Positions 15,988-63,301 are shown, counted from the stretch's first letter. The stretch is 64,000 nucleotides of DNA from Fidelibacterota bacterium (GCA_049975265.1 JBNGDF010000001.1:118218-182217); one strand, 5' to 3'. The notes: generated by a model not told the origin, from the letters alone. Numbers and translations: made by a program.

Positions 15988-16845
15988 CTATCTGTCGCCC
16001 CTTTTTGGCGGATTGCCCGATTGATCATCGATGAATAAAAACTCGTCGCGCCGCTCGTCTGCCGGTGTCGCCCGCCGGAACCAGTACATGCCACAGAATA
16101 ATAATACAATTCCGATCAACAAAATGACGGGTGAGACATGCCCCTTCCACTCATACCAAATCAGTTTACCATCATCAAGATGGGTGAACAGAATGGCGAC
16201 GCCATTGTTGACGGCGTGAATAATAAAAGATATCCAGACGGAATTCGTGCGCCAGGCGACATATCCCATAAAGACCCCGATAATATATATTTGTACAATC
16301 CACCAGGGATTGAAATGAATAAAGGCAAATATCAGCGCCGAATACAGCACGGCTCTGGTAATATCCCGGATACGGTATTCCAGGATACGCTGCAGAAATC
16401 CGCGGAAGACCAGCTCTTCAATCAGGGGCGCAATAATCACCACAACGCCGATGATAAAGATCGCCGAAAGCGGATCGGAAATGGTGACAATTTCCTGAAT
16501 TTTTGAAAATTCCAAAGGCGTAGGCGCCAATGTCTGGGCGATTCGATCCAGTTCGTCGATAATGACAGTCAGACCGATAGCTAGTGGCAGCGCCGCCGCT
16601 ACCGCCCCCAGTGGTACGGGATTGATTCGAAAAATCTTACGCAGGCTGGCACTGTTCTTTGTTGCCCAGAAATAGATCGGCAGGGGCAGAAAGAGTTCTC
16701 CGATCAGCAAGCCCATCTGCACCGAGGTAATCCCGATAATTGTCGGTGATAAAAACATGACAGCACCGGCGGTGATGGATGCCAGGACCAATCCGACGAT
16801 CAGAAGAATAATAGCGGTTTTTATCGAAGGAATGCTATTGAACAT
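15988..16845 (-). CDS. CPBP family intramembrane glutamic endopeptidase (CAAX protease / Abi family)
   Basis: Motifs EELVFRGF (EExxxR), FxxxH (FAFIHF) and HAVNN (HxxxN) in TM helices. Confidence 0.8.
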   Translation of the reverse strand: MFNSIPSIKTAIILLIVGLVLASITAGAVMFLSPTIIGITSVQMGLLIGELFLPLPIYFWATKNSASLRKIFRINPVPLGAVAAALPLAIGLTVIIDELDRIAQTLAPTPLEFSKIQEIVTISDPLSAIFIIGVVVIIAPLIEELVFRGFLQRILEYRIRDITRAVLYSALIFAFIHFNPWWIVQIYIIGVFMGYVAWRTNSVWISFIIHAVNNGVAILFTHLDDGKLIWYEWKGHVSPVILLIGIVLLFCGMYWFRRATPADERRDEFLFIDDQSGNPPKRGDR

Positions 16846-16944
16846 TGGATTACACTGTTTTGTGTTAAAGGGCGTGTGAATTTAGACAGGCGGGCGGCTA
16901 AAGTCAAGAACTTGCCCCCTGTGGATATTACTTTTCACCGCCGT

Positions 16945-17472
16945 TCAATCCGGGGCGAGCTGGTTGAATAGTGTTCGGATTGCCGTAGTGTCCGGGGCGG
17001 AAAATCCCTGCTTGAAACAGACAATCTCACCGTCTACGTTGATTCCCACCAGTGTCGGCGTGGCCTGGGCGGTAAAGTTTTCCGCAATCTTTCCGTAGCG
17101 GTCCAGCAGGACCGGCAGGGTATAGTTCATCTTGCGAATGTAGGCTTGAACCGTATGTGGATCTTCGCCCACATTGACCAGATAGATCCTGATTTCAGGA
17201 TATTCTCTGCTCAGGGTATGCAGATAGGGAATCTCTTTTCGGCAGGCTACACAGTAACTGGTGAAGAAGGAAAACACGATTGGTCCTTTTAAGTCCGGGC
17301 GGGCGCGGGGTCCGACATAGCGGCTGAGGAAAAAATCTTTTCCGTCGAGAGTCCTGGCATAACAACCCGGTGCCGTTGTTCCCGTCGAGAGCTGTTTTGT
17401 TGGATTGACAGAGAGGCTGTCGGCTCCCGAAATTGTAGTGATCAGTAAAACAGGCAGGATAAACAGACGCAT
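16945..17472 (-). CDS. TlpA-like thiol-disulfide oxidoreductase (redoxin), secreted
   Basis: Signal peptide MRLFILPVLLITTISGA (start moved to ATG 17472), thioredoxin fold with CVAC active site (FFTSYCVACRKEIPYL). Confidence 0.75.
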   Translation of the reverse strand: MRLFILPVLLITTISGADSLSVNPTKQLSTGTTAPGCYARTLDGKDFFLSRYVGPRARPDLKGPIVFSFFTSYCVACRKEIPYLHTLSREYPEIRIYLVNVGEDPHTVQAYIRKMNYTLPVLLDRYGKIAENFTAQATPTLVGINVDGEIVCFKQGFSAPDTTAIRTLFNQLAPD

Positions 17473-17473
17473 A

Positions 17474-18367
17474 TCAGGTCTCCTCCGGGCGCAGTAGTTC
17501 GTGCAGGAGAATTCCGGCAGAAACTGCCACATTCAGAGATTCTCCGCTGCCGTGCTTCGGAACCGCTATAATGTCATGGGCGGCATATTTAACCGCTTCT
17601 GGTAAACCGTGTGATTCACTGCCCAGAACCAAGCCCCAGTGTTTGTGTGGACAGGGTTGTACCGGTTTCCCGCCGGGATCGGCGCAGAATACCGCAATAT
17701 TCTTTTGAATACAATAGTCTAAAAGATCATCAGGGGCGACATTTTGCCATATGGAAACGTGGAAAACGGCGCCCATCGATCCACGTACAACTTTTGGAGA
17801 GTAGGGATCGACGCTGTTGGGGGAGATTATGATATGCCGGATACCAAACCAGCAGGCGGTTCTGAGGATGGTTCCCAAGTTGCCGGGATCGTTGATTTCC
17901 CAGAGAAATAGAAAGGGTGATTGTTCAGTATCTTCCGGCGGAAAAGAGTATTCCGGCAGGCTGGCAATGGCAAGAACACCCTCCGGATTTTTCTGTGAGC
18001 TAATGGATCGTATATCTGCATCCCTGACAATTTTAACCGTATCCCAGTCGACAGGAATCCCGCTGAAGATGTTTTTCTCATAAGCAGAGTGACCGAGATA
18101 GATCCGCCCGACCGGAAAGTGTGCCTCCAGCGCCTCCTTTAGGAGCTTGGCTCCCTCGAGCATGAACTGCTGCTGGCGGTAGCGGAATTTTTTCTGCTGA
18201 AGAGCAGTGACCTGCTGCCGTTCCGGGCGGGATAGCCGAAAAACCGGTTGATCTTCTCCTGACTTCTTGAATCTCTCTGGATTTCGACGGTTGCCATCAT
18301 TATATTTGCGGGGGTGTTGTACAGTGTTCACAAAAGATAAGTTATTGATAGCAGGCAAATGAAACAA
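17474..18367 (-). CDS. TrmH/SpoU family RNA 2'-O-methyltransferase (RlmB-like)
   Basis: N-terminal substrate-binding region (LQQKKFRYRQQQFMLEG), SPOUT motifs LEINDPGNLGTILRTA, LVLGSESHGL, LNVAVSAGILL; exact start uncertain. Confidence 0.8.
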   Translation of the reverse strand: MFHLPAINNLSFVNTVQHPRKYNDGNRRNPERFKKSGEDQPVFRLSRPERQQVTALQQKKFRYRQQQFMLEGAKLLKEALEAHFPVGRIYLGHSAYEKNIFSGIPVDWDTVKIVRDADIRSISSQKNPEGVLAIASLPEYSFPPEDTEQSPFLFLWEINDPGNLGTILRTACWFGIRHIIISPNSVDPYSPKVVRGSMGAVFHVSIWQNVAPDDLLDYCIQKNIAVFCADPGGKPVQPCPHKHWGLVLGSESHGLPEAVKYAAHDIIAVPKHGSGESLNVAVSAGILLHELLRPEET

Positions 18368-19519
18368 GCCCGCAACATCAGAGAAATGTTACACATGCTG
18401 GTTCTTTTTAGACGGGCGGCGCGGGTCGTATTGCTCTATTCCTGTCACGGATTGCTCAACTATTGGATTCGCCGACGCCCGGTTTTGAAAAAAAGTCAGA
18501 TCGGACTGCCCGGAAGAGACAAGATTCATCCGGCTGTTCTTTATACAACAGCAATATCCGAAAAACGCCCGGTATTTGTCGTAGTTGCCGGAACGAGTGC
18601 CTTTGCCCGGAAGCGTCAGCGCCTGAACTGCTTTGCCAAAGCCCTGGCACTGGTTGGTTATCACGTAATCATTGTAAAAAATGAAAATGGGCAGCATATC
18701 CCGGGTACAATTGATCCGACAGAAATCGGTGAAATTATTGAGGCAGTTTCCCTGGATGAGCGGTTTGACAGCAGCCGGATTGTGCTGGTGGGTGCCGATT
18801 TCAGTTCAGCCTGTTTACTGGCGGCAATGAATAATGCAGAAGCCCTTTGGAAAATCCACAGCTTTCTTTTTCTATCACCGGTGACGGATATAAGCAGTCT
18901 CATCAATTTTGCTTTTCGGGGTCGGGTCAAAATCCGGGGTCGCTGGTTTTACCGCTCCTCTTCCGTCAAAATCCGACTTCTTTATCTGTTGTTCGTCCTG
19001 AAAACCGGTCTGTCTCCCGATCAATTTGAGCGGGTATCCGGCATTATATCTCTGCTGCTATCAGACCGTCCGACGACGGCATTTCAGAAAGTTCAGACCC
19101 TTGAGTCGGATATTCACCACCTGCTGCTGGCTGTTTATAGGGGGGATATGGATACTAATGCCGTCCGGAGTTTGACGGAAATATACCGGCGTGATCTGGA
19201 TGCGTCGTATAGCGAGGCGATTCCATCATGTGATCTCGAACGCCCGGTCTTTATTGTACACAGTATCCTTGATGAGGATGTTGATTGCGGGCAGGGTCAG
19301 CTGCTCTGGGAGAAGCTGTCCAGCTCGGCAGGTGTTTACCTGCATTTGACGGATTTTGTGCTTGCCGACGGATGCCGGTCGCTTGTCACCAATCCGGCGA
19401 AATGGGTCTGGGGTGCTTTCGACATGACCCGTGCTCTTTACAGAGTACTGGCGTATCTTTACAGTGATAAAAATTTACCCTATAATCCCACCCAAACAGC
19501 CCTTCGGATGCGTATTTAA
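18359..19519 (+). CDS. hypothetical protein, degenerate alpha/beta-hydrolase-like fold
   Basis: 386 aa; hydrolase-like strand-turn-helix RIVLVGADFSSACLLA where a GxSxG elbow would be (G-A-D-F-S, last Gly missing); no other motif recognised. Confidence 0.3.
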   Translation: MKQARNIREMLHMLVLFRRAARVVLLYSCHGLLNYWIRRRPVLKKSQIGLPGRDKIHPAVLYTTAISEKRPVFVVVAGTSAFARKRQRLNCFAKALALVGYHVIIVKNENGQHIPGTIDPTEIGEIIEAVSLDERFDSSRIVLVGADFSSACLLAAMNNAEALWKIHSFLFLSPVTDISSLINFAFRGRVKIRGRWFYRSSSVKIRLLYLLFVLKTGLSPDQFERVSGIISLLLSDRPTTAFQKVQTLESDIHHLLLAVYRGDMDTNAVRSLTEIYRRDLDASYSEAIPSCDLERPVFIVHSILDEDVDCGQGQLLWEKLSSSAGVYLHLTDFVLADGCRSLVTNPAKWVWGAFDMTRALYRVLAYLYSDKNLPYNPTQTALRMRI

Positions 19520-29448: not shown

Positions 29449-30378
29449 TCAGGACAGCCTGTCGATATATTCGGAGGCGGTCAGTGCACCGATGGTACCA
29501 TCTCCCACCGCTTCGGCGATCTGCCGGAATTTCTTGGAGCGTACATCGCCAACGGCAAAAACACCCCTGATATTGGTGTGCATATAACGATCGGTGATAA
29601 TGTGTCCGTCGTCGTCCAGCTCCACCAGGTCTTTGACAAAATCCGTATTTGGTGTCCAGCCGATGAATATGAAAACCCCTTCGGTCTTTTTGGTGTCGAT
29701 TTTGCCGGTTTTAACATTTTTAATTGTCACGGCTTCCACTAGATTTTCACCCGTGATTGCGGTAACAACGGAGTCCCAGATAAAGTCGATCTGTTTGTGG
29801 TCGTAGGCACGCTGTTGCAGGATCGGACTGGCGCGCAGCTGATCACGGCGGTGAATAACGGTTACCTTACTGGCGAATTTTGTCAGAAAAAGAGCCTCCT
29901 GAATGGCGGCATCGCCTCCGCCGACCACGACGATTTCGGCGTCTTTGTAAAAGGGACCGTCGCAGGTGGCGCAATAGGAAACACCCCGACCGGTCAATTC
30001 CTTTTCACCGGGGACATTTAGCAGGCGGGGCAGACCGCCGGTGGCAATGATAACCGTTTTGCTGTGGTACTCTTTTTTTTCTGTTTTTACTATATGGAAC
30101 TTTTCACCGGGAGTAATGGCGCTGGCTTCATCATACTCCCTGATGACGACATTGAACCGCTCGGCTTGGCGCCGAAATTTCTGCATCAGTTCCGGTCCCG
30201 GGATCCCTTCGGGAAATCCGGGGTAATTCTCAATCAGGTCGGTGACATTTGGGATACCGCCGGTCATTGATTTTTCCAGCAGCAGCGTGTCCAGTTTTTC
30301 CCGGGCGGTATAGATTGATGAGGTGAATCCGGCAGGACCGCCACCGATAATCACGACGTCGTAAACTTTATCCATCAC
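29449..30378 (-). CDS. trxB: thioredoxin-disulfide reductase
   Basis: FAD motif VIIGGGPAG, redox-active CATCDG, NADPH motif VVVGGGDAA, ~309 aa. Confidence 0.9.
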   Translation of the reverse strand: MMDKVYDVVIIGGGPAGFTSSIYTAREKLDTLLLEKSMTGGIPNVTDLIENYPGFPEGIPGPELMQKFRRQAERFNVVIREYDEASAITPGEKFHIVKTEKKEYHSKTVIIATGGLPRLLNVPGEKELTGRGVSYCATCDGPFYKDAEIVVVGGGDAAIQEALFLTKFASKVTVIHRRDQLRASPILQQRAYDHKQIDFIWDSVVTAITGENLVEAVTIKNVKTGKIDTKKTEGVFIFIGWTPNTDFVKDLVELDDDGHIITDRYMHTNIRGVFAVGDVRSKKFRQIAEAVGDGTIGALTASEYIDRLS

Positions 30379-34770: not shown

Positions 34771-36531
34771 TTAATGCAGAACCAGACAATTACCACGAAT
34801 TATAGTGTCCCGATCGTAAATAGTCACGATATAGATGCCGGAGGATACCTTTTGTCCCTGTAAATTTTTCAGATTCCATTGAATTGATTCCGGCGTTCCG
34901 GCAATTTGGGGTGCAAGTTCGGTGCGCCAGACCAGTTCACCAAGAAGGTTATGGATGGTAAGCGGTACCCTCTTTTCAGAGGGAATCACATGAGGCCAGA
35001 GAAACCGGAGGGTCACACCGGAGATGGCTGGATTCGGCAGGGCGTAGACTCGTTTTCGCTCCAGCTGGCGACCCGGAATAAAAAGCGAATCCTGAGCGAA
35101 CATGGCTCGATATATATCGGGAACGCCCCATCCGTAACGATGGTCGGGATTGTGGCTGTGTGAGGCATTGTTTCTGAGCATTTGAATAATTTGGATCGGC
35201 GACAGTGTGGAATATTTTTCGATTAACAGGGCGGCAGACCCGGCGATTAATGGCGTGGCATAGGAGGTTCCGTCACCGGTATTGTAGGATGTCGGAGAAC
35301 CGGAGGAAGCCACGTAGATGCTGACACCGGGTGCGCAGAGATCCGGCTTGATTCGCCCGTCGGGTGTTGGACCGTGAGAGCTGAAGCCGGCGATCTGACC
35401 GTCCAGATTTACCGCCCCGACGGTCAGTGCTCCCAGGGCATCGGAAGGTGACATCAGCCCGCCGTCAGAGAAGAGCCGGGCGGCATTGCCGGCACAGATG
35501 ACCGGTAATATTCCGCGTTCGAAAGCCCAGTTGACGACACGTGCCACCGCAGTGGTCCGACCGTCCAGGTCTTCGTAGGGATGATCCTCGGCGGGATCGT
35601 CGAAGTCGTAGCGATAAGAAACCGAGGAACTGATGATATCCGCGCCATTTTCATCAGCCCACTCAACTGCCGCTACGAAGTAATCCTCCTCCACGGCGGT
35701 TTCCGATGGAATGATTTCGGTTTTTGCCAACAGGAATTCGGCACCATAGGCGGCTCCGATGTAGCTGTCTTCTACGAACCCACCAATCAGACTCCAGACG
35801 GAGGTACCGTGCCGGCACTGGATATTGCTGGTACCGCTGCCAGCCTGATCATCCTGAACATCGTTATCCTTGTAAATAAAATCCCGCTCAGCGATCAGCC
35901 GATCGCTAGTAATGATTTGTTGAAAGACCTCATGATCTTTAAAGAAACCGGCATCAATGAGAGCAATCCGCACACCTGCGCCGGTATACCCTGCCTCATG
36001 GACAGGTGGAATATTCAGTCGCTGAAGCTGCTCATAAGAGTTGCCATAGTAGGGATTGTCCGAATGAGATTTTTCAAGTGATCGGGCTGGTTCGGGAGGT
36101 GACATACGCCGGTAGCGGCGCACCATCGTAACCTCTTTGACAAACGGAAGGTCTTTGAGAGAAGATGTTTTTGAGGGATTTATCATTGCCGAATAGGCTT
36201 GCAGGGCTCGTGAATAGAACAGAATCCTTCGGCAATCCTTTTCGATGGCGGTGCGAATATGCTGACCCGGAACGGCATTGGAAAAATTCGTCTCATCAGG
36301 CGCACCTTTCTGATAAAGCCGGGCTGCACAGCGCGGGGTGATTTTCAGCGGAGTAAAATCTGCCGTGGTCAATTGGGTTGTATCCAGATAAATCCAGACC
36401 TTTTGACAGTCGTTGATGGCTGTCTGGGCGGACAGTGCCGGGGAGAGACAAAGCCAGGCGATCCAGCCGGAGATGAAAACCGCAAATGCGGCTGTGCCAG
36501 GATAAAAAATCAGATAGCTGCTGCGTCTCAC
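34771..36531 (-). CDS. S8 family subtilisin-like serine peptidase with T9SS C-terminal sorting domain
   Basis: Catalytic triad blocks ALIDAGF (Asp), HGTSVWS (His), GTSYATPLIAGSAALL (Ser); C-terminal ~80 aa ...KVSSGIYIVTIYD...NCLVLH typical type-A T9SS CTD. Confidence 0.9.
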   Translation of the reverse strand: MRRSSYLIFYPGTAAFAVFISGWIAWLCLSPALSAQTAINDCQKVWIYLDTTQLTTADFTPLKITPRCAARLYQKGAPDETNFSNAVPGQHIRTAIEKDCRRILFYSRALQAYSAMINPSKTSSLKDLPFVKEVTMVRRYRRMSPPEPARSLEKSHSDNPYYGNSYEQLQRLNIPPVHEAGYTGAGVRIALIDAGFFKDHEVFQQIITSDRLIAERDFIYKDNDVQDDQAGSGTSNIQCRHGTSVWSLIGGFVEDSYIGAAYGAEFLLAKTEIIPSETAVEEDYFVAAVEWADENGADIISSSVSYRYDFDDPAEDHPYEDLDGRTTAVARVVNWAFERGILPVICAGNAARLFSDGGLMSPSDALGALTVGAVNLDGQIAGFSSHGPTPDGRIKPDLCAPGVSIYVASSGSPTSYNTGDGTSYATPLIAGSAALLIEKYSTLSPIQIIQMLRNNASHSHNPDHRYGWGVPDIYRAMFAQDSLFIPGRQLERKRVYALPNPAISGVTLRFLWPHVIPSEKRVPLTIHNLLGELVWRTELAPQIAGTPESIQWNLKNLQGQKVSSGIYIVTIYDRDTIIRGNCLVLH

Positions 36532-55964: not shown

Positions 55965-58784
55965 TTATTTCAGTAGTTTTTTAAGGAATTGACCGGTGTA
56001 GGAATGATCGATCGCGGCGATATTTTCGGGTGTGCCGGTGGCAACAATGGTTCCTCCCTGGTCACCACCTTCGGGTCCCAGATCGATGATATGGTCGGCG
56101 GTTTTAATAACATCGAGGTTATGCTCGATCACGATGATTGTATTACCCTGATCCACCAGGCGATTCAGGACATCGAGCAATATTTTGATATCCTCGAAAT
56201 GCAGACCGGTGGTCGGTTCATCCAGAATATAGAGCGTTTTTCCGGTTCCGACTTTGCTGAGTTCCGTCGCCAATTTGACTCGCTGGGCTTCACCGCCGGA
56301 GAGGGTTGTTGCCTGTTGTCCGAGCTTGAGATAGCCGAGCCCGACGCTATGCAGGGTCTCCAGTTTTTTGCGGAGGCGCGGAATTTTTTCAAAGAATGTC
56401 AGGGCTTCATTGACCGACATATCCAGAACGTCGGCAATGCTTTTACCGCGATATTTAATCTCGAGGGTTTCCCGGTTGTAGCGCTTGCCTTTGCACACCT
56501 CACAGGGCACGTAGACATCGGGCAGAAAGTGCATTTCGATTTTTCGAATGCCATCACCGTTGCAGGCTTCGCAGCGACCGCCACGGACATTAAAAGAGAA
56601 GCGCCCGGCACGGTAGCCGCGAATTTTGGACTCTTTCAGTGAGCTGAACAGCTCCCGGATGATGCCGAAGGTTCCGGTGTAAGTTGCCGGATTGGAGCGG
56701 GGAGTACGTCCGATGGGATTCTGGTTGATATCAATGACCTTGTCAATGTATTCAATTCCGCGAATGGATTCGTATTTCAGCGGGATTTGTGATGATTTGT
56801 AAAAATGCCGGTGCAGGATCGGGTAGAGGGTTTCATTGATTAAGCTACTTTTACCGGACCCGGACACGCCGGTGATGCAGATGAATTTGCCGAGAGGAAA
56901 ATAGACGGTAATGTTTTTCAGATTGTTGCCCTGGGCGCCGCAGAGGCAGAGCTGTTTACCGTTGCCGGACCGCCGGTTTGGAGAATAGTGGATGTACCTT
57001 TTCCCGGATAGGTATTGCCCGGTCAGGGATTGGTCGTTTTGCCGGATGTCATCGGGTGTGCCCTGGGCGACCACATAGCCGCCCGTTTCGCCGGCGCCGG
57101 GCCCCAGGTCGAGAATAAAATCACCCTGTTCGATGGTTTCCCGGTCGTGCTCCACCACCATTACGGTATTCCCGATGTCTCGAAGACGGGTGAGAGTATT
57201 CAGCAGGCGACCGTTGTCGCGCTGGTGCAGACCGATGCTTGGCTCGTCCAGAATATAGAGCACTCCGACAAGTTGGGAGCCAATCTGGGTGGCAAGCCGG
57301 ATGCGCTGGGCTTCGCCTCCGGAAAGGGTCTGGGCGGAGCGGTCGAGGGTCAGATATTCCACACCCACATTGATCAGAAAATCGACCCGTTCGCGGATTT
57401 CTTTCAGAATCTGGTGAGCAATCAATTGTTCACTGGAGCTCAGCTCCAACTCTCTGAAGAATGTTTTTAATCCAGAGACCGGATAGGCGGTCAGTTGGCT
57501 GATCGACAGTCCGCCGACTTTGACTGCCAGACTCTCTTTTTTCAGGCGGGCACCGTTGCAGGTGTGGCAGGGACGTACACTCATAAACTGATTGATCCAG
57601 GTTCGGATTCCGATGGAATTGGTCTGGGTGTACCGGCGTTTTAAATTGTTGATAACACCCTCAAACGGTGCATTATATTGCCCCTGCATACGTTGGGAAT
57701 TATAGTTCACCGTGACAGCATCCCCGGATGTTCCATAGAGAAGCACCTGCTTTGCCTGCTCCGGAAGCCGGTAAAAAGGGGTGATAAAATCGAAATTGTA
57801 TCGTTTTGCAAGCCCTTTTAGAATGGCGGAATACCAGTTGCCCCGGGGCTGCTCACCGAGGGGAATGATGGCTCCTTCCGAGAGACTCTTGCGGTCATCG
57901 GGCACTAGCAGGTCCGGATCGATTTCCATTTGATATCCCAGCCCGTCACAGTCCGGGCAGGCGCCGTACGGGCTGTTGAAAGAGAACATCCGGGGCGAGA
58001 GCTCTTCGTAGCTGATGCCGCAGTCGGGACAGGCAAAGTGTTCGCTGAAGATGTGTTCCGCCTCGCCGTTAACCCAGACGATGATCAGACCTGAGCCGAG
58101 ATTCAGAGCCAGTTCGACGGACTCAGTGAGGCGCTCCTGGATGGAGGAGTTCACAATCAGGCGATCGACGACGACTTCGATATGGTGTTGTTTGTTTTTA
58201 TCAAGCCGGATCGGCTGGTCGATATCAAATATTTTACCGTCGATTCGTACCCGGACAAAGCCCTCCCGGCGAACCTCTTTGAAAATCTCGCGATATTCAC
58301 CCTTGCGACCCCGCACCAGCGGCGCCATGATCATAATCCGGGTATCTTCCGGAAAATTCAGAATAGCATCCACGATCTGCTGCGGTGTCTGTTTCTGGAT
58401 GCGTTTGCCGCAATTGTAGCAGTAGGGAACCCCGATCCGGGCATACAGCAGGCGTAGATGATCGTATATTTCGGTTAATGTCCCGACGGTGCTGCGGGGA
58501 TTGCGGGAGGCTGCCTTTTGCTCAATGGAGATGGTGGGGCTGAGACCCTCGATAAAATCCACATCCGGTTTTTCCATGACACCGAGAAACTGGCGGGCAT
58601 AGGCGGAAAGCGATTCCACGTAGCGCCGCTGTCCCTCGGCGTAGATGGTGTCAAAAGCCAGCGAGGATTTTCCCGAACCCGATAAACCGGTAATGATCAC
58701 CAGTTTATCCCGGGGAATCCTGACATCGATGTTTTTCAGATTGTGCTCACGGGCACCTTTTATAATGATATCGTGACGGCTCAT
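55965..58784 (-). CDS. uvrA: excinuclease ABC subunit A
   Basis: 939 aa; two ABC ATPase halves with Walker [13 protein letters not shown] and [11 protein letters not shown], zinc-finger CxxC pairs, signature LSGGEAQR twice. Confidence 0.95.
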
Positions 58785-58983
58785 TTATTCATCCTGACAA
58801 TCATGAAAATTACAACTAACACGGCACAACGGAAAGATTTTTTCTCAGGTTCAATATATCATTTCTAAAGAGTTGTGGTTAAATTAGGTGAGTGGATATC
58901 AGACATTTTCAGATGTATCCAAAAATGGTCTAAGAGGATCAAACAAAATAAACCCAGGATAACATTTAGGAAGGAAATAGGAG

Positions 58984-60537
58984 ATGAGACCGGTTGCATT
59001 AATTATTCGGGATGGCTGGGGCTATAGTGAAAATCCCAAAGGGAATGCCGTAATGGCAGCCAAAACACCCAATATCGATTCCTATAAAAATAAATACCCC
59101 TGGACATTGCTGGAATGTTCCGGAGAAGCGGTCGGTTTGCCGGCGGGCTATCAGGGGTCCAGTGAGGTTGGACACCTGAACATCGGCGCCGGGCGAATCG
59201 TTATCCAGGAGTTAAAGCGCATCGATGATGGATTGACCAACGGAACACTTTTTCAATCACCGAAGTGGCACAACCTGATTGAAAATTGGAAATCCAATAA
59301 ATCCCGCCTGCATCTTCTGGGCTTGCTTCAGGACGAGGGCGTTCATGCGCACCAGGAGCATCTTTTTAAAATTATGAGGCAGGCGCGGGAAGAGTACCCC
59401 GAAGGCGAGATTATTATTCATCCCTTTCTGGACGGGCGGGACACGCCTCCCCGCAGTACACTGGAATATATTGCCAAATTGAATCGGGTGATGCAGGATG
59501 TCGGGAATTGCCGGATCGGTACGCTGATGGGGCGCTACTATGGGATGGACCGCTCCCGCAACTGGAAATTAACCGATATCGCTTATCACTGCATTGTCAA
59601 TGCCGATGGGCGCCGGGCGGAAAGTGCCGAAGAAGCCGTCAAGGAATCCTATGAAAAGGATCAGACACCCGACCATGTGGATATGTTTGATGAGTATATT
59701 CCACCCTACGTCATCGGCTCCTACGACGGGGTCCATGACGGCGATTCCGTTATGCATACCAATTATCGCCAGGACCGCGCGATTCAGCTAAGCATGGCAT
59801 TTGTCGATCCAAAATACCCCGGACAGCTCCAGCGCCGACCGCAGATCGTCTATGTCGGCTTCACCCAGTACTACGATGAATTTGATAATTATCTGCTGGG
59901 TTCTATGAGCTCCGGCGGTGGTATGAAGAATCTTCTCGGTGAGGTGATTTCAAAAGCCGGTCTGAGGCAGCTGCGTATCGCGGAAACCCAGAAATTTCGA
60001 CACGTCACCAGTTTTTTCAACGGCAAATCCACCACCCCCTTTCCCAACGAGGATCAGGTGGATATTCCCAGCCGTTTTGATCCGGCGAGCTTTGCCAGCC
60101 AACCGGAGATGGATGCCTACAACGTCACGGCGGAGGTGTTGAAACGGCTCGAACACAATCCGTATCATTTTATTGTTATTAACTATGCCAATGGTGATAT
60201 GGTAGGACATACGGGTAATTTTGACGCCGCCCGCAAGGCGATTGAAATTGTCGATGAAAACGTCGGCAGAGTCGTTCAACGGCTGCTGGAGCTCGATGCC
60301 CATGTCCTGATCACCGCCGATCATGGCAATTCTGAGCAGATGGTGGATTACGAAACCGGTATGGTAAAAACAAGCCACACCCTGAATCCGGTGGAGCTGA
60401 TCTATATGGCGAAAGATTCTCCGGGAACGAAACTAATCGAGAGAGGCAAACTCTCCGATATTGCCCCGACTGTTCTGCGGCTCATGGGTTTACAGATTCC
60501 CCCGGAAATGACGGCGGATGTTTTATTGAAAAAATAG
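58984..60537 (+). CDS. gpmI: 2,3-bisphosphoglycerate-independent phosphoglycerate mutase
   Basis: iPGM blocks LIIRDGWG, SEVGHLNIGAGR (phospho-Ser), DGRDTPP, ADHGN; 517 aa. Confidence 0.95.
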   Translation: MRPVALIIRDGWGYSENPKGNAVMAAKTPNIDSYKNKYPWTLLECSGEAVGLPAGYQGSSEVGHLNIGAGRIVIQELKRIDDGLTNGTLFQSPKWHNLIENWKSNKSRLHLLGLLQDEGVHAHQEHLFKIMRQAREEYPEGEIIIHPFLDGRDTPPRSTLEYIAKLNRVMQDVGNCRIGTLMGRYYGMDRSRNWKLTDIAYHCIVNADGRRAESAEEAVKESYEKDQTPDHVDMFDEYIPPYVIGSYDGVHDGDSVMHTNYRQDRAIQLSMAFVDPKYPGQLQRRPQIVYVGFTQYYDEFDNYLLGSMSSGGGMKNLLGEVISKAGLRQLRIAETQKFRHVTSFFNGKSTTPFPNEDQVDIPSRFDPASFASQPEMDAYNVTAEVLKRLEHNPYHFIVINYANGDMVGHTGNFDAARKAIEIVDENVGRVVQRLLELDAHVLITADHGNSEQMVDYETGMVKTSHTLNPVELIYMAKDSPGTKLIERGKLSDIAPTVLRLMGLQIPPEMTADVLLKK

Positions 60538-60569
60538 TCCGTTTCTGAAAGAATGGCGGAGTAACGGAT

Positions 60570-61181
60570 TTAATGGTCCTTCAACGGGCTCCAGACCTTC
60601 CAGACATTACCGACTAGATCGGGTCCCGGTTTCAAAACCTTTTTACCCGGCGTCCAGCCAGCAGGACAAACCTCTTTGCCCTTGGAAGCGCGGACATGCT
60701 GAAATGCCTGAATCTGGCGAATCGTCTCACCCAGTTGACGACCGACGGGAGGAGTCATGACCTCCATCACCTGAATGATACCATCCGGATCAATAATAAA
60801 CCGACCCCGTAGTTCGACGCCGGCATTCTCATCGTAGACGCCATATATTTTACCAACGTTGCCGGCTCCGTCGGATACCATGTGAAAAGGGACATCCTTT
60901 TCAGCCATTTTGGACAGTTCCTGCTCGTTCCAGACTTTGTGAACAAATTGGCTGTCAACGCTAACCGAGATAACCTCGACACCCAATTCCTGTAATGTTT
61001 GATAATTGGCAGCGACCGCTGACACTTCGGTCGCTCAGACAAAGGTGAAGTCGCCGGGATAAAAACAGAGCATTACCCATTGACCTAGAAAATCGGATAA
61101 TTTGATGCTGGTAAAAGAACCCCGATAATAGGCGGGCGCCTGAAAATCGGGAGCCTTGGTACCAACTTTGATTGAAGACAT
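60570..61181 (-). CDS. peroxiredoxin (AhpC/TSA 2-Cys type) with in-frame TGA at the peroxidatic-Cys position: candidate selenocysteine peroxiredoxin
   Basis: Track ORFs 61035..61283 and 60570..61025 share one frame split only by TGA 61035..61037: ...LCFYPGDFTFV-[TGA]-ATEVSAVAANYQTLQELGVEVISVSVDSQF vs canonical FYPLDFTFVCPTEI...GVSVDSQF; start ATG 61181 with GAGGAG 7 nt upstream. Confidence 0.55.
61012..61034 (-). promoter_or_regulatory. SECIS-like hairpin immediately 3' of the in-frame UGA
   Basis: mRNA UGA-GCGACCG-AAGUGUCAG-CGGUCGC: perfect 7-bp stem, 9-nt loop, followed by a second hairpin CCAAUU-N15-AAUUGG. Confidence 0.35.
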
Positions 61182-61387
61182 TTTCGGCTCCTCGTGTGAA
61201 ATATGTTCGGGTTTACTTTCAGTGGGCGGTTCACCAACAGTGGCACCTGTCGGACGAGCACAGCCCACAGCTTCTTCTGACATGATTGGATTCCTTCCGT
61301 TTGTTACGTTTTACTCCTGCCATTCTTCCAGAATTCTTCGGGCTGTCATTATTATACAAAGTAAATCGTTGAATTCCAAGTCCTATT

Positions 61388-62206
61388 CTACCGGTTGCCG
61401 GTATTGCGGTATTTTGTGAAGTACAGCAGATGATATTCCAGGGCATTTGTCCAGTAATCCCAGTTGTGCTTTCCGGGGCGCTCAATATAGTCATGGGGAA
61501 TGCCCAGTTCGATCAATTTTGTGTGTACGGTGCGATTGATTGCGATGGTGAAATCATTAATTCCGCAATCCAGCAGAATCCCCTTGTTCAATCCGACGAG
61601 GTTTTCAAGTAGGGAAATACATGAATTTTGTTGCCAAAACTTGGGATTGGATTCCGGGTCTCCGAGCAGCCGGATGAGACCGTATTTTTTACTGGAATGA
61701 GAGAGCGCCAGGGCACCACTCATGCTGCCGGCGGCTGCATACAGGTCGGGATGTTTTGCCAGCAGACTGAGGGCACCATATCCGCCCATGCTCAGACCGC
61801 AGATGAAGCGCCCCTCCGGTCCGGCGATTGTCCGGTAGTGTTTGTCAATATAGCCAATAACCTCTTGAGAGATATAAGTCTCGTACTGTGAGTTTTTATC
61901 CAGAGGGCTGTCGAGATACCAGCCGTCATAGCCACCATCGGGGCAGACGATGATGAGCTGATACCGTTCCACCAGCGGGCGCAGGTCCATGTGCAGCGAC
62001 CAGTCCCGGAATGAGCCACTCCACCCGTGTAGCAGATAGAGAACCGGTAGAGCCGTTTTGTTTTGATGATAGGAATCGGGAATGACAATCACCGCCCTGG
62101 GCGCCTTCTCCATGGATTCGCTTTTGATAACGACAGTATCCAGCGATGCAGCCAGCAGCTGCCGGACGAGAAACAGAGCTAAAAGGAGATATTTTATCAT
62201 TTTCAT
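61388..62206 (-). CDS. secreted esterase family alpha/beta hydrolase (esterase D / enterochelin-esterase-like)
   Basis: Signal peptide MKMIKYLLLALFLVRQLLAAS (ATG start rather than the TTG at 62233 used by the ORF track; my hand count of the plus strand near 62204-62225 disagrees with the track translation by one base, so the ATG coordinate is +/-1 nt), nucleophile elbow GLSMGGYGAL, HGWSGS oxyanion region. Confidence 0.7.
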   Translation of the reverse strand: MKMIKYLLLALFLVRQLLAASLDTVVIKSESMEKAPRAVIVIPDSYHQNKTALPVLYLLHGWSGSFRDWSLHMDLRPLVERYQLIIVCPDGGYDGWYLDSPLDKNSQYETYISQEVIGYIDKHYRTIAGPEGRFICGLSMGGYGALSLLAKHPDLYAAAGSMSGALALSHSSKKYGLIRLLGDPESNPKFWQQNSCISLLENLVGLNKGILLDCGINDFTIAINRTVHTKLIELGIPHDYIERPGKHNWDYWTNALEYHLLYFTKYRNTGNR

Positions 62207-62237
62207 GGGGCGACCTTTCGAATATGCAGACAATTTT

Positions 62238-62263
62238 TTATGCTGATACCCTGATCAGCATAA
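62238..62263. promoter_or_regulatory. 10-bp perfect inverted repeat (candidate transcription-factor operator) in divergent esterase / TolB-like promoter region
   Basis: TTATGCTGAT-ACCCTG-ATCAGCATAA; no U-run on either strand so not terminator-like. Confidence 0.35.
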
Positions 62264-62365
62264 ATCAGTGGTAAAGTTAAAAAATTTTTACCATTTTGCG
62301 ATAAATCATGTGCAAATTGGATTAATAATTTTAACTTACTAACTGAAAAGAAGGAGATCATCATA

Positions 62366-63301
62366 ATGAAACGAGACATTTTATTTGGACTTTTATTCCT
62401 GCTGCCGGTGTTTGGGCTGCAGGCTCAGAGGATCGACGTCACCGGGACGGTTATCATCCCCACGGAAGAGAGCCGGTATATGGCACCGCAATTCAGTCCC
62501 GACGGTGACAAAATCCTTTTTACGGAATTCGGCTATAAGGGTTTATGGCTTTATGATTTGAAACACAAAGCGCTGACCCAGATCAACGCCTATGCCGGTG
62601 CGGGCTATGAACCGGCATTCACGGAGGACGGAAAGAAGGTCGTCTTTCGGGTGGATGAATACCGAAAGATGCGACGATATACCGCTCTGGCAGTTCAGAC
62701 CCTTGGCGATCAGCAGGTAAAATATCTGAGTGAAAAGACCCGCCACCTGTCGCCGGTGCTTCACCTTGAGCCAAACCGGGTATTGGCGGTAGCGGAAAAG
62801 CGTATCCAGGCATACAGTCTTGAGCTAGCAAAACCGGTTCAGTCGGTTAAAAGTCATGCACCGCTTGTATACATTGAGGATCAGAATATAGCCCTGTTTC
62901 AGAATGGCGAGTTAAGGCTTCTGGCGCCTCTTGGCAAGGGCAATTATATTTGGCCTTCATTGTCGCCGGATCACAACCGGATTCTGTTCACGATTGCTGG
63001 TCGGGGAAGTTATATATCCGATCTGGATGGAAAGATAATAGCGGAATTGGGAGTCGCCCGTGCTCCCCGCTGGTCGCCCGATGGGAAATGGGTGGTCTGC
63101 ATGGTGGATGAGGATGACGGACATGTAATCACGGCATCAGACCTCTGGGTTGTCGGTGCCGCTGGCGCGCCACGAATCCGGTTGACCCACACCACTAACC
63201 GTATCGAGATGCACCCCAACTGGTCGCCGGATATGAGCAAAATTGCCTTCGATACAGAAGATGGTCAAATCGGCTATCTGACAATTGAAATTATCAATTA
63301 A
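62366..63301 (+). CDS. secreted TolB-like beta-propeller (PD40/WD40-like repeat) protein
   Basis: Signal peptide LFGLLFLLPVFGLQAQ; repeated PxFSPDG / PSLSPDH / PRWSPDG / PNWSPDM units typical of PD40 blades; AAGGAG RBS. Confidence 0.6.
   Translation: MKRDILFGLLFLLPVFGLQAQRIDVTGTVIIPTEESRYMAPQFSPDGDKILFTEFGYKGLWLYDLKHKALTQINAYAGAGYEPAFTEDGKKVVFRVDEYRKMRRYTALAVQTLGDQQVKYLSEKTRHLSPVLHLEPNRVLAVAEKRIQAYSLELAKPVQSVKSHAPLVYIEDQNIALFQNGELRLLAPLGKGNYIWPSLSPDHNRILFTIAGRGSYISDLDGKIIAELGVARAPRWSPDGKWVVCMVDEDDGHVITASDLWVVGAAGAPRIRLTHTTNRIEMHPNWSPDMSKIAFDTEDGQIGYLTIEIIN

Follow-up and report, generated by a model that had tools for sequence, protein, structure and literature searches.

The prxU locus

Here, we analyzed a window of 64,000 nucleotides from a Fidelibacterota bacterium (GCA_049975265.1, JBNGDF010000001.1:118218-182217; all positions below are counted from its first letter) and identified on its minus strand a peroxiredoxin (Prx) gene, prxU, that is interrupted by a single in-frame TGA. 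As the initial annotation of this DNA had described, two minus-strand open reading frames (ORFs), 61283..61035 (82 codons) and 61025..60570, lie in the same frame with only the TGA at 61037..61035 between them. When this codon is read through, the long ORF (60570..61283, minus strand; 237 codons including the UGA at codon 83, with the stop codon TAA at 60570-60572) gives a product of 237 residues, ...LCFYPGDFTFV-U-ATEVSAVA...KEVCPAGW..., in which U, the candidate selenocysteine (Sec) encoded at 61035..61037, closes a PxxxTxxU motif (P76-G-D-F-T80-F-V-U83). It is residue 83 of this long form and residue 49 of a short form starting at an internal ATG. The gene has no frame disruption other than the TGA, and the downstream KEVCPAGW block, which had been reported as intact, is present and carries Cys206.

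This TGA is the only one in the window that lies in frame between two long ORFs and is followed by a hairpin of the Sec insertion sequence (SECIS) type at the right distance. When the 64-kb window was scanned for in-frame TGA codons with SECIS-like hairpins, prxU was the sole credible selenoprotein gene; the eight other hits were in alternative or antisense frames, several of them demonstrably within known genes. As such a combination is unique in the window and the TGA is kept in all relatives, it is more than a chance occurrence.

Family assignment of the read-through protein

For profile searches, Cys was put in place of the stop in the read-through protein. It matched the NCBIfam equivalog NF040737 (peroxi_PrxU) with 399.3 bits (cutoff 270) over profile positions 2-231 of 233, as well as the Pfam domains AhpC-TSA and 1-cysPrx_C. 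The closest solved structures were typical 2-Cys Prxs, in which the UGA aligns to the peroxidatic Cys (C_P) and Cys206 to the resolving Cys (C_R); in 4fh8, the UGA falls on the Cys of DFTFVCPTE. Alignment to solved structures thus bore out the earlier statement that the TGA sits exactly at the peroxidatic-Cys position. With respect to the features of typical 2-Cys Prxs, the C-terminal resolving Cys is present, whereas DFTFVCPTE is altered, having Sec in place of the peroxidatic Cys and then Ala, not Pro. Because the peroxidatic site is occupied by Sec, the protein is assigned as a Sec variant of the Prx1/AhpC subfamily and not as a Cys enzyme. The prxU gene of this organism is an ordinary orthologue of an already known family.

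Conservation of the TGA codon and selective constraint

When one genome per GTDB species was scanned, 80 relatives with 66-93% identity (in the best tblastn segment) were obtained, and protein look-ups added 7 contigs, giving 87 relatives from more than 10 phyla. They belong to Neomarinimicrobiota (the closest, 93%), Calditrichota, Cloacimonadota, Acidobacteriota, Chloroflexota, Synergistota and Beta/Gammaproteobacteria (such as Thiobacillus, Thiocapsa and Marinobacter), among others. The initial annotation had proposed to check whether orthologues carry TGA or TGC/TGT at this codon: it was TGA in all 87. A metagenome scan provided 74 further distinct relatives, again all with TGA (161/161 overall).

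The window is syntenic with a contig of a Neomarinimicrobiota metagenome-assembled genome (MAG), DSAS01000047, over uvrA-gpmI-prxU-esterase (window positions 55993-62698) at 85% nucleotide identity, and the PrxU proteins of the two share 93% of their amino acids. The ratio of nonsynonymous to synonymous substitution rates (dN/dS) was computed against this contig and a further three close relatives, two of which are likewise syntenic. It amounted to 0.02-0.04 downstream of the TGA (codons 84-237) and to about 0.09-0.13 upstream of it (codons 35-82). Low values on both sides of the TGA indicate that both halves are translated and constrained. Among the 43 window ORFs of at least 250 codons, TAA is the stop codon of 18, TGA of 15 and TAG of 10, and no other gene in the window requires read-through of TGA.

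These data bear on three explanations that do without Sec. A nonsense mutation of the Cys codon (TGC/TGT to TGA) that killed the peroxiredoxin would need only one base change, and standard gene callers do split the locus, with relatives broken into products of 81 and 151 amino acids. However, a dead gene would not be expected to show TGA at this very codon in all 161 independent relatives, spread over many phyla, dN/dS of 0.02-0.04 beyond the stop, an otherwise undisturbed frame, and conserved synonymous sites with a covarying hairpin just after the UGA, and we consider a pseudogene exceedingly improbable. A sequencing or assembly error for TGC/TGT is less credible still, as the TGA recurs in independently assembled genomes and in metagenomes, including the syntenic Neomarinimicrobiota MAGs that differ from the window at 15 of every 100 nucleotides. 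The Trp found at the catalytic position in 87 of 104 database homologues might suggest that the organism uses an alternative genetic code, with TGA read as Trp or Gly, but these residues stem from TGA codons that gene callers have mistranslated, TGA closes 15 of the 43 long ORFs of the window where no other gene needs its read-through, and Trp or Gly as the peroxidatic residue is incompatible with Prx catalysis; such a reassignment is as negligible as an error in the sequence. Taken together, the universal TGA, purifying selection and the use of TGA as a normal stop in the window exclude the pseudogene, sequencing-error and recoding explanations.

The SECIS element

To characterize the RNA downstream of the UGA, an ungapped alignment of 84 distinct sequences was used for comparative analysis. 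A conserved mini-hairpin with the family consensus C-N-G-C [GGUC] G-C-N'-G was identified. In the window, its core, CAGC-[GGUC]-GCUG, occupies 61010..61021 on the minus strand (+14..+25 after the UGA, loop at 61014-61017), placing the loop 17 nt from the UGA; the extended stem (61007..61024, minus strand) adds U11-A28, G12-C27 and a U13xC26 mismatch before the core is reached. The variable pair of the core (columns 30-39), formed by a Ser wobble base and the wobble base of the third Ala, is G-C in 44 sequences, A-U in 29 and C-G in 11, and is broken in none. The relatives from metagenomes add U-A at this pair, and their stem is fully paired in 72 of 74. A second pair (27-42, equivalent to G12-C27) also covaries (G-C 49, A-U 11, U-A 3). 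The covariation score of the mini-hairpin was 0.235, compared with 0.075 in shuffled alignments, and was exceeded in 0 of 500 shuffles; RNAalifold, run unguided, predicted the same CAGC/GCUG hairpin. The loop codons GCG GUC, which also contribute to the 3' arm of the GCGACCG/CGGUCGC hairpin (see below), hardly vary, not even at synonymous sites, the loop being GGUC in nearly all of the 84 sequences and in 52 of the 74 metagenome sequences, and otherwise AGUU or CGUG.

In the bacterial SECIS (bSECIS) model (PMC13188914, Fig. 2A), the apical loop has 3-9 nt and is carried by an upper stem of 4-16 bp, a G occurs within the first two loop positions and is followed by G or U, 16-37 nt separate the loop from the UGA, and the minimum free energy is at most -7.5 kcal/mol. 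The mini-hairpin agrees with it in loop size (4 nt), stem (4 uninterrupted bp, or 6 bp if a 1x1 mismatch is included), position of the G and spacing (17 nt), and its two covarying pairs provide the compensatory changes expected of a SECIS structure.

The initial annotation had proposed another candidate, a perfect 7-bp hairpin directly 3' of the UGA (GCGACCG-AAGUGUCAG-CGGUCGC, 61012..61034, minus strand), followed by a second stem-loop. The hairpin does exist, and it is mutually exclusive with the core described above. According to this view, the gene is likewise decoded with Sec, and GCGACCG/CGGUCGC, perhaps together with the second stem-loop, is the functional SECIS. With 7-8 bp and -12 to -13.8 kcal/mol, this hairpin is more stable than any other local fold of the window RNA, 90.6% of its pairs are formed across relatives, and all 7 are found in 43 of the 84. 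However, 5 of the 7 pairs involve first and second positions in the codons of the conserved A-T-E...A-V-A residues and are thereby fixed or nearly so, and the two variable ones, wobble against wobble, are mismatched in 24 and 30 of the 84 sequences with no compensation. Its covariation score was 0.023 versus 0.029 in shuffles, with zero covarying pairs. In addition, the loop AAGUGUCAG lacks a G at either of its first two positions and is separated from the UGA by 7 nt, which places it outside the bSECIS model (PMC13188914), and this hairpin would leave unexplained why the wobble sites of Ser and Ala-8 covary perfectly. The second stem-loop was paired in 55% of cells, equal to shuffles, and has to be abandoned as a part of the SECIS. 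It is therefore very unlikely that this hairpin is the functional element: the choice made by single-sequence folding was overturned by the comparative analysis, and the most stable hairpin beside a UGA is not necessarily the SECIS.

The two folds compete in the RNA of this organism. In the clade of the window, the wobble bases of Ala84 and Thr85 complete the alternative hairpin (-13.8 kcal/mol), which on naked mRNA sequesters the 5' half and the loop of the SECIS hairpin. The 5' arm of the alternative hairpin lies within about 10 nt of the UGA, and when the first 10 nt after the UGA were removed to mimic coverage by the ribosome, 78 of the 84 sequences folded into the mini-hairpin. Besides these two hairpins, RNAalifold offered a small helix that holds the UGA in a 5-nt loop (UUUGUC/GCGACCGAA, columns 7-24, about 61026-61043). 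Its pairs are mostly fixed by amino-acid constraints.

Several observations weigh against Sec decoding through the mini-hairpin. In the window, the local SECIS hairpin is weak (-5.4 kcal/mol, above the limit of -7.5; the family median with the mini-hairpin enforced is -14.4 kcal/mol), and on naked RNA it loses to the GCGACCG hairpin at -13.8 kcal/mol. Window-wide folding of the single sequence gave no structure signal relative to shuffles (z = -0.5), and Rfam returned nothing at gathering thresholds over the whole window, and a chance snoRNA match only when 60900-61100 was searched at a permissive E-value. A small control of four Cys-type genes was available: the hairpin is absent in three of them (L089-L091) and kept in one. 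Finally, a tRNA scan, NCBIfam searches of ORFs of suitable size and tblastn with the SelA and SelB proteins of relatives revealed no selA, selB, selD or tRNA-Sec in the 64-kb window, which contains no tRNA at all; thus, Sec decoding in this particular genome is inferred.

The Cys-type gene that keeps the hairpin (L088) has CGGC-GGUC-GCCG after its TGC codon, possibly a fossil SECIS left by a recent Sec-to-Cys conversion. A metagenome scan seeded with a Cys-type protein found TGA-type genes only.

Genomic context and Sec machinery in relatives

In eight proteobacterial loci, selA, selB and tRNA-Sec follow directly after prxU, sometimes with an extra ORF, and on two more short contigs prxU is followed by selA before the contig ends. 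This linkage gives strong indirect support to Sec decoding. Loci with prxU-selA-selB-tRNA-Sec were noted in Beta/Gammaproteobacteria (L032 10001-15484, L066 10001-18673, L024, L027, L035, L037, L065, L067 and L077). One of them, in Marinobacter (L066), also contains an additional selB in convergent orientation (16643-18673) and another tRNA-Sec (16542-16637). The proteobacterial arrangement may represent a mobile, self-sufficient cassette of a selenoprotein gene plus its decoding machinery.

Considering the NF040737 match, the universal TGA, purifying selection, the covarying SECIS and the linkage to sel genes in proteobacterial relatives, the proposal of a Sec peroxiredoxin of the PrxU type and not a pseudogene holds. 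It is very probable that the locus is an intact prxU gene, encoding a thioredoxin-dependent peroxiredoxin of the Prx1/AhpC fold with Sec as the peroxidatic residue.

Elsewhere in the window, a thioredoxin-disulfide reductase gene, trxB, was identified at 29449..30378 on the minus strand (TIGR01292, 380.8 bits, cutoff 343). It lies outside the locus and is the probable source of electrons for PrxU via thioredoxin. A subtilisin-like protease gene at 34771-36531 (minus strand) has a weak match to a C-terminal sorting domain of the type IX secretion system (21 bits, cutoff 23). Taken with the synteny of the uvrA-gpmI-prxU-esterase block, this match suggests an origin of the window in Marinimicrobia, a candidate phylum of the FCB group.

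Start codons and the N-terminal extension

The initial annotation had placed the start of the gene at an ATG at 61181 preceded by GAGGAG. Both are present, the ATG (Met35, start of the Prx domain) at 61179..61181 and the Shine-Dalgarno (SD)-like GAGGAG at 61188..61193, 6 nt upstream of it on the minus strand, and together they form a conserved, plausible internal start; however, the ORF and the family model begin at the ATG at 61283. Upstream of the long ORF, TTGGAA-17-TATAAT (61351..61379, minus strand) is a candidate sigma-70-like promoter, judged solely from its agreement with the consensus at 10 of 12 positions. The short form matched NF040737 with 381 bits over profile positions 34-231 only, which means that the curated PrxU model includes the N-terminal extension starting from the ATG at 61283. 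Translation from the internal ATG would give 203 amino acids, which is reportedly also the length of PrxU from Eubacterium acidaminophilum.

The internal ATG is found in 80 of 83 distinct relatives, and AAGGAG or GAGGAG precedes it in 75 of 83. The Lys-Glu codons at the SD-like site are strongly biased, with AAG preferred 52:1 and GAG 66:5, compared with 57% and 42% in the rest of prxU (p = 5e-12 and 7e-20, without correction for phylogeny). Judging from these sequence patterns, two translation starts appear to be maintained in the prxU family.

The extension itself, of 34 residues, is shared across phyla with the consensus M-x-[ED]-x-x-x-G-C-A-R-[PVT]-[TS]-G. In the window it contains G7-C8-A-R-P-T-G13 (61245..61265, minus strand), a motif conserved at the protein level: first and second positions of the GCARxTG codons are conserved and third positions are free, which indicates selection on the protein. 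Cys8 was present in 103 of 104 full-length homologues taken from a public protein collection (set P0001-P0120). One subclade (L025, L074 and L082) lacks the extension. In an AF2 model of a natural Cys-type relative, the Prx domain was predicted with confidence, while pLDDT was 57-62 for the N-terminal motif and below 50 for the linker. The model is compatible with a flexible N-terminal arm and provides no evidence on the function of such an arm.

Cysteines and proposed mechanism

Two further cysteines deserve attention. Cys73 (codon 61065..61067, minus strand), in LCFYPGD ten residues before Sec, is specific to the family; it was found in 104 of 104 homologues, compared with Phe in 4fh8, the best-matching solved 2-Cys Prx. 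Cys206 (codon 60666..60668, minus strand) is at the canonical resolving position and aligns to EVCPAGW of 4fh8. Across the 84 PrxU relatives, position 206 is Cys in 24, Thr in 45, Met in 12 and Ile in 1, the motif being missing in 2.

By analogy with fdhF of Escherichia coli, a ribosome arriving at UGA-83 would draw the first ~10 nt downstream into its mRNA channel and so unwind the competing 7-8-bp hairpin; the freed CAGC-[GGUC]-GCUG hairpin could then bind SelB-GTP-Sec-tRNA(Sec), leading to insertion of Sec without termination. We infer from general Prx chemistry that the U83 selenolate in the PxxxTxxU pocket would reduce peroxide, being itself converted to a selenenic acid, which a Cys would resolve. 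Because this clade has the canonical Cys206, the simplest reading is that Cys206 of the partner subunit serves in this role, giving an intersubunit Se-S bond as the counterpart of the disulfide of typical 2-Cys Prxs. This bond would presumably be reduced by thioredoxin/TrxB.

A more elaborate scheme, which we offer tentatively and regard as rather unlikely, is that the prxU ORF produces two isoforms: a short, classical Prx from the SD-like motif and ATG at 61193-61179, and a long one with a disordered 34-residue arm whose Cys8, alone or with Cys73, resolves or protects the selenenic acid. If true, such a role of Cys8/Cys73 would explain the loss of the canonical resolving Cys in 58 of 84 family members.

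Annotation and implications

The prediction that automated pipelines would miscall the locus was correct for many of them, which either split the gene into 81- and 151-residue products, as seen for two relatives (L001/L002), or place Trp at the UGA; on the other hand, a dedicated model for PrxU exists at NCBI. Trp at the catalytic site, a mistranslated TGA, was present in 87 of the 104 close full-length homologues. Thus, the prxU family is systematically misannotated outside NCBI's pipeline. The correct annotation is one selenoprotein gene, prxU, with a transl_except for Sec at 61035-61037, and not two fragments or a pseudogene.

As far as can be judged from sequence, the presence of prxU would imply that this Marinimicrobia-like organism possesses the Sec-decoding trait and employs selenium in peroxide defence. 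The comparative data also supply a clean, covariation-supported SECIS for the PrxU family. The current understanding of these proteins is unchanged, as Sec-peroxiredoxins are long-established, abundant bacterial selenoproteins that have been known since 2001.

Comparison with known systems

The best reference for the RNA element is the SECIS of E. coli fdhF, whose sequence we confirmed in 5,419 of 5,426 E. coli genomes. In both elements, a short G/C stem carries a GGUC loop, which lies 18 nt downstream of the UGA in fdhF and 17 nt here, and a U stands immediately 5' of the upper stem. Using the same parameters, the 17-nt minihelix of fdhF had an energy of -4.2 kcal/mol versus -5.4 kcal/mol here. 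They differ in that the upper stem is 3 bp in fdhF and 4 bp here, and that fdhF has a defined U bulge whereas the U is mismatched or paired here. In addition, prxU of this clade lacks the long lower helix of fdhF.

With regard to the protein, typical 2-Cys Prx/AhpC structures (4fh8, 5zte, human PRDX2 1qmv and AhpC 1yep) match over the whole Prx domain with E = 1e-43 to 1e-45, and the motifs PxDFTFV(C/U)xTE and EVCPAGW align. Unlike these enzymes, PrxU has Sec followed by Ala in place of Pro, an invariant extra Cys73 and a 34-residue N-terminal extension with a conserved Cys.

Sec-containing Prxs have been described in several surveys of bacterial selenoproteomes. With 43 genes, they ranked second in abundance among the selenoprotein families of the Sargasso Sea (PMC1088965), and they are covered in reviews of bacterial selenoproteomes (PMC1794560, PMC13188914). 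The surveyed proteins share the TxxU motif and the Cys-to-Sec replacement at C_P with the gene analyzed here; however, these surveys pool several Prx subfamilies (COG1225 is cited), whereas prxU belongs to the AhpC/Prx1-like PrxU subfamily. A seleno-peroxiredoxin of Clostridium sticklandii, CLOST_2406, has Sec84 in 240 residues (PMC3091704, Table 2). Compared by annotation only, the two proteins are alike in having Sec at about position 83-84 of about 237-240 residues, which implies the same N-terminal extension.

The closest counterpart is PrxU of E. acidaminophilum, which is reported as a Sec peroxiredoxin (Sohling et al., 2001, Biol Chem 382:979, PMID 11501765, as cited in PMC8533274). It belongs to the same family (equivalog NF040737, whose model names PrxU thioredoxin-dependent), with Sec in place of the peroxidatic Cys in TxxU and the Prx1/AhpC fold; the hosts differ, being clostridial there and Marinimicrobia-like here. 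The clade of the window retains the resolving Cys (EVCPAGW), which is missing from 58 of 84 relatives, and its SECIS loop is GGUC, compared with AGUU in low-GC relatives.

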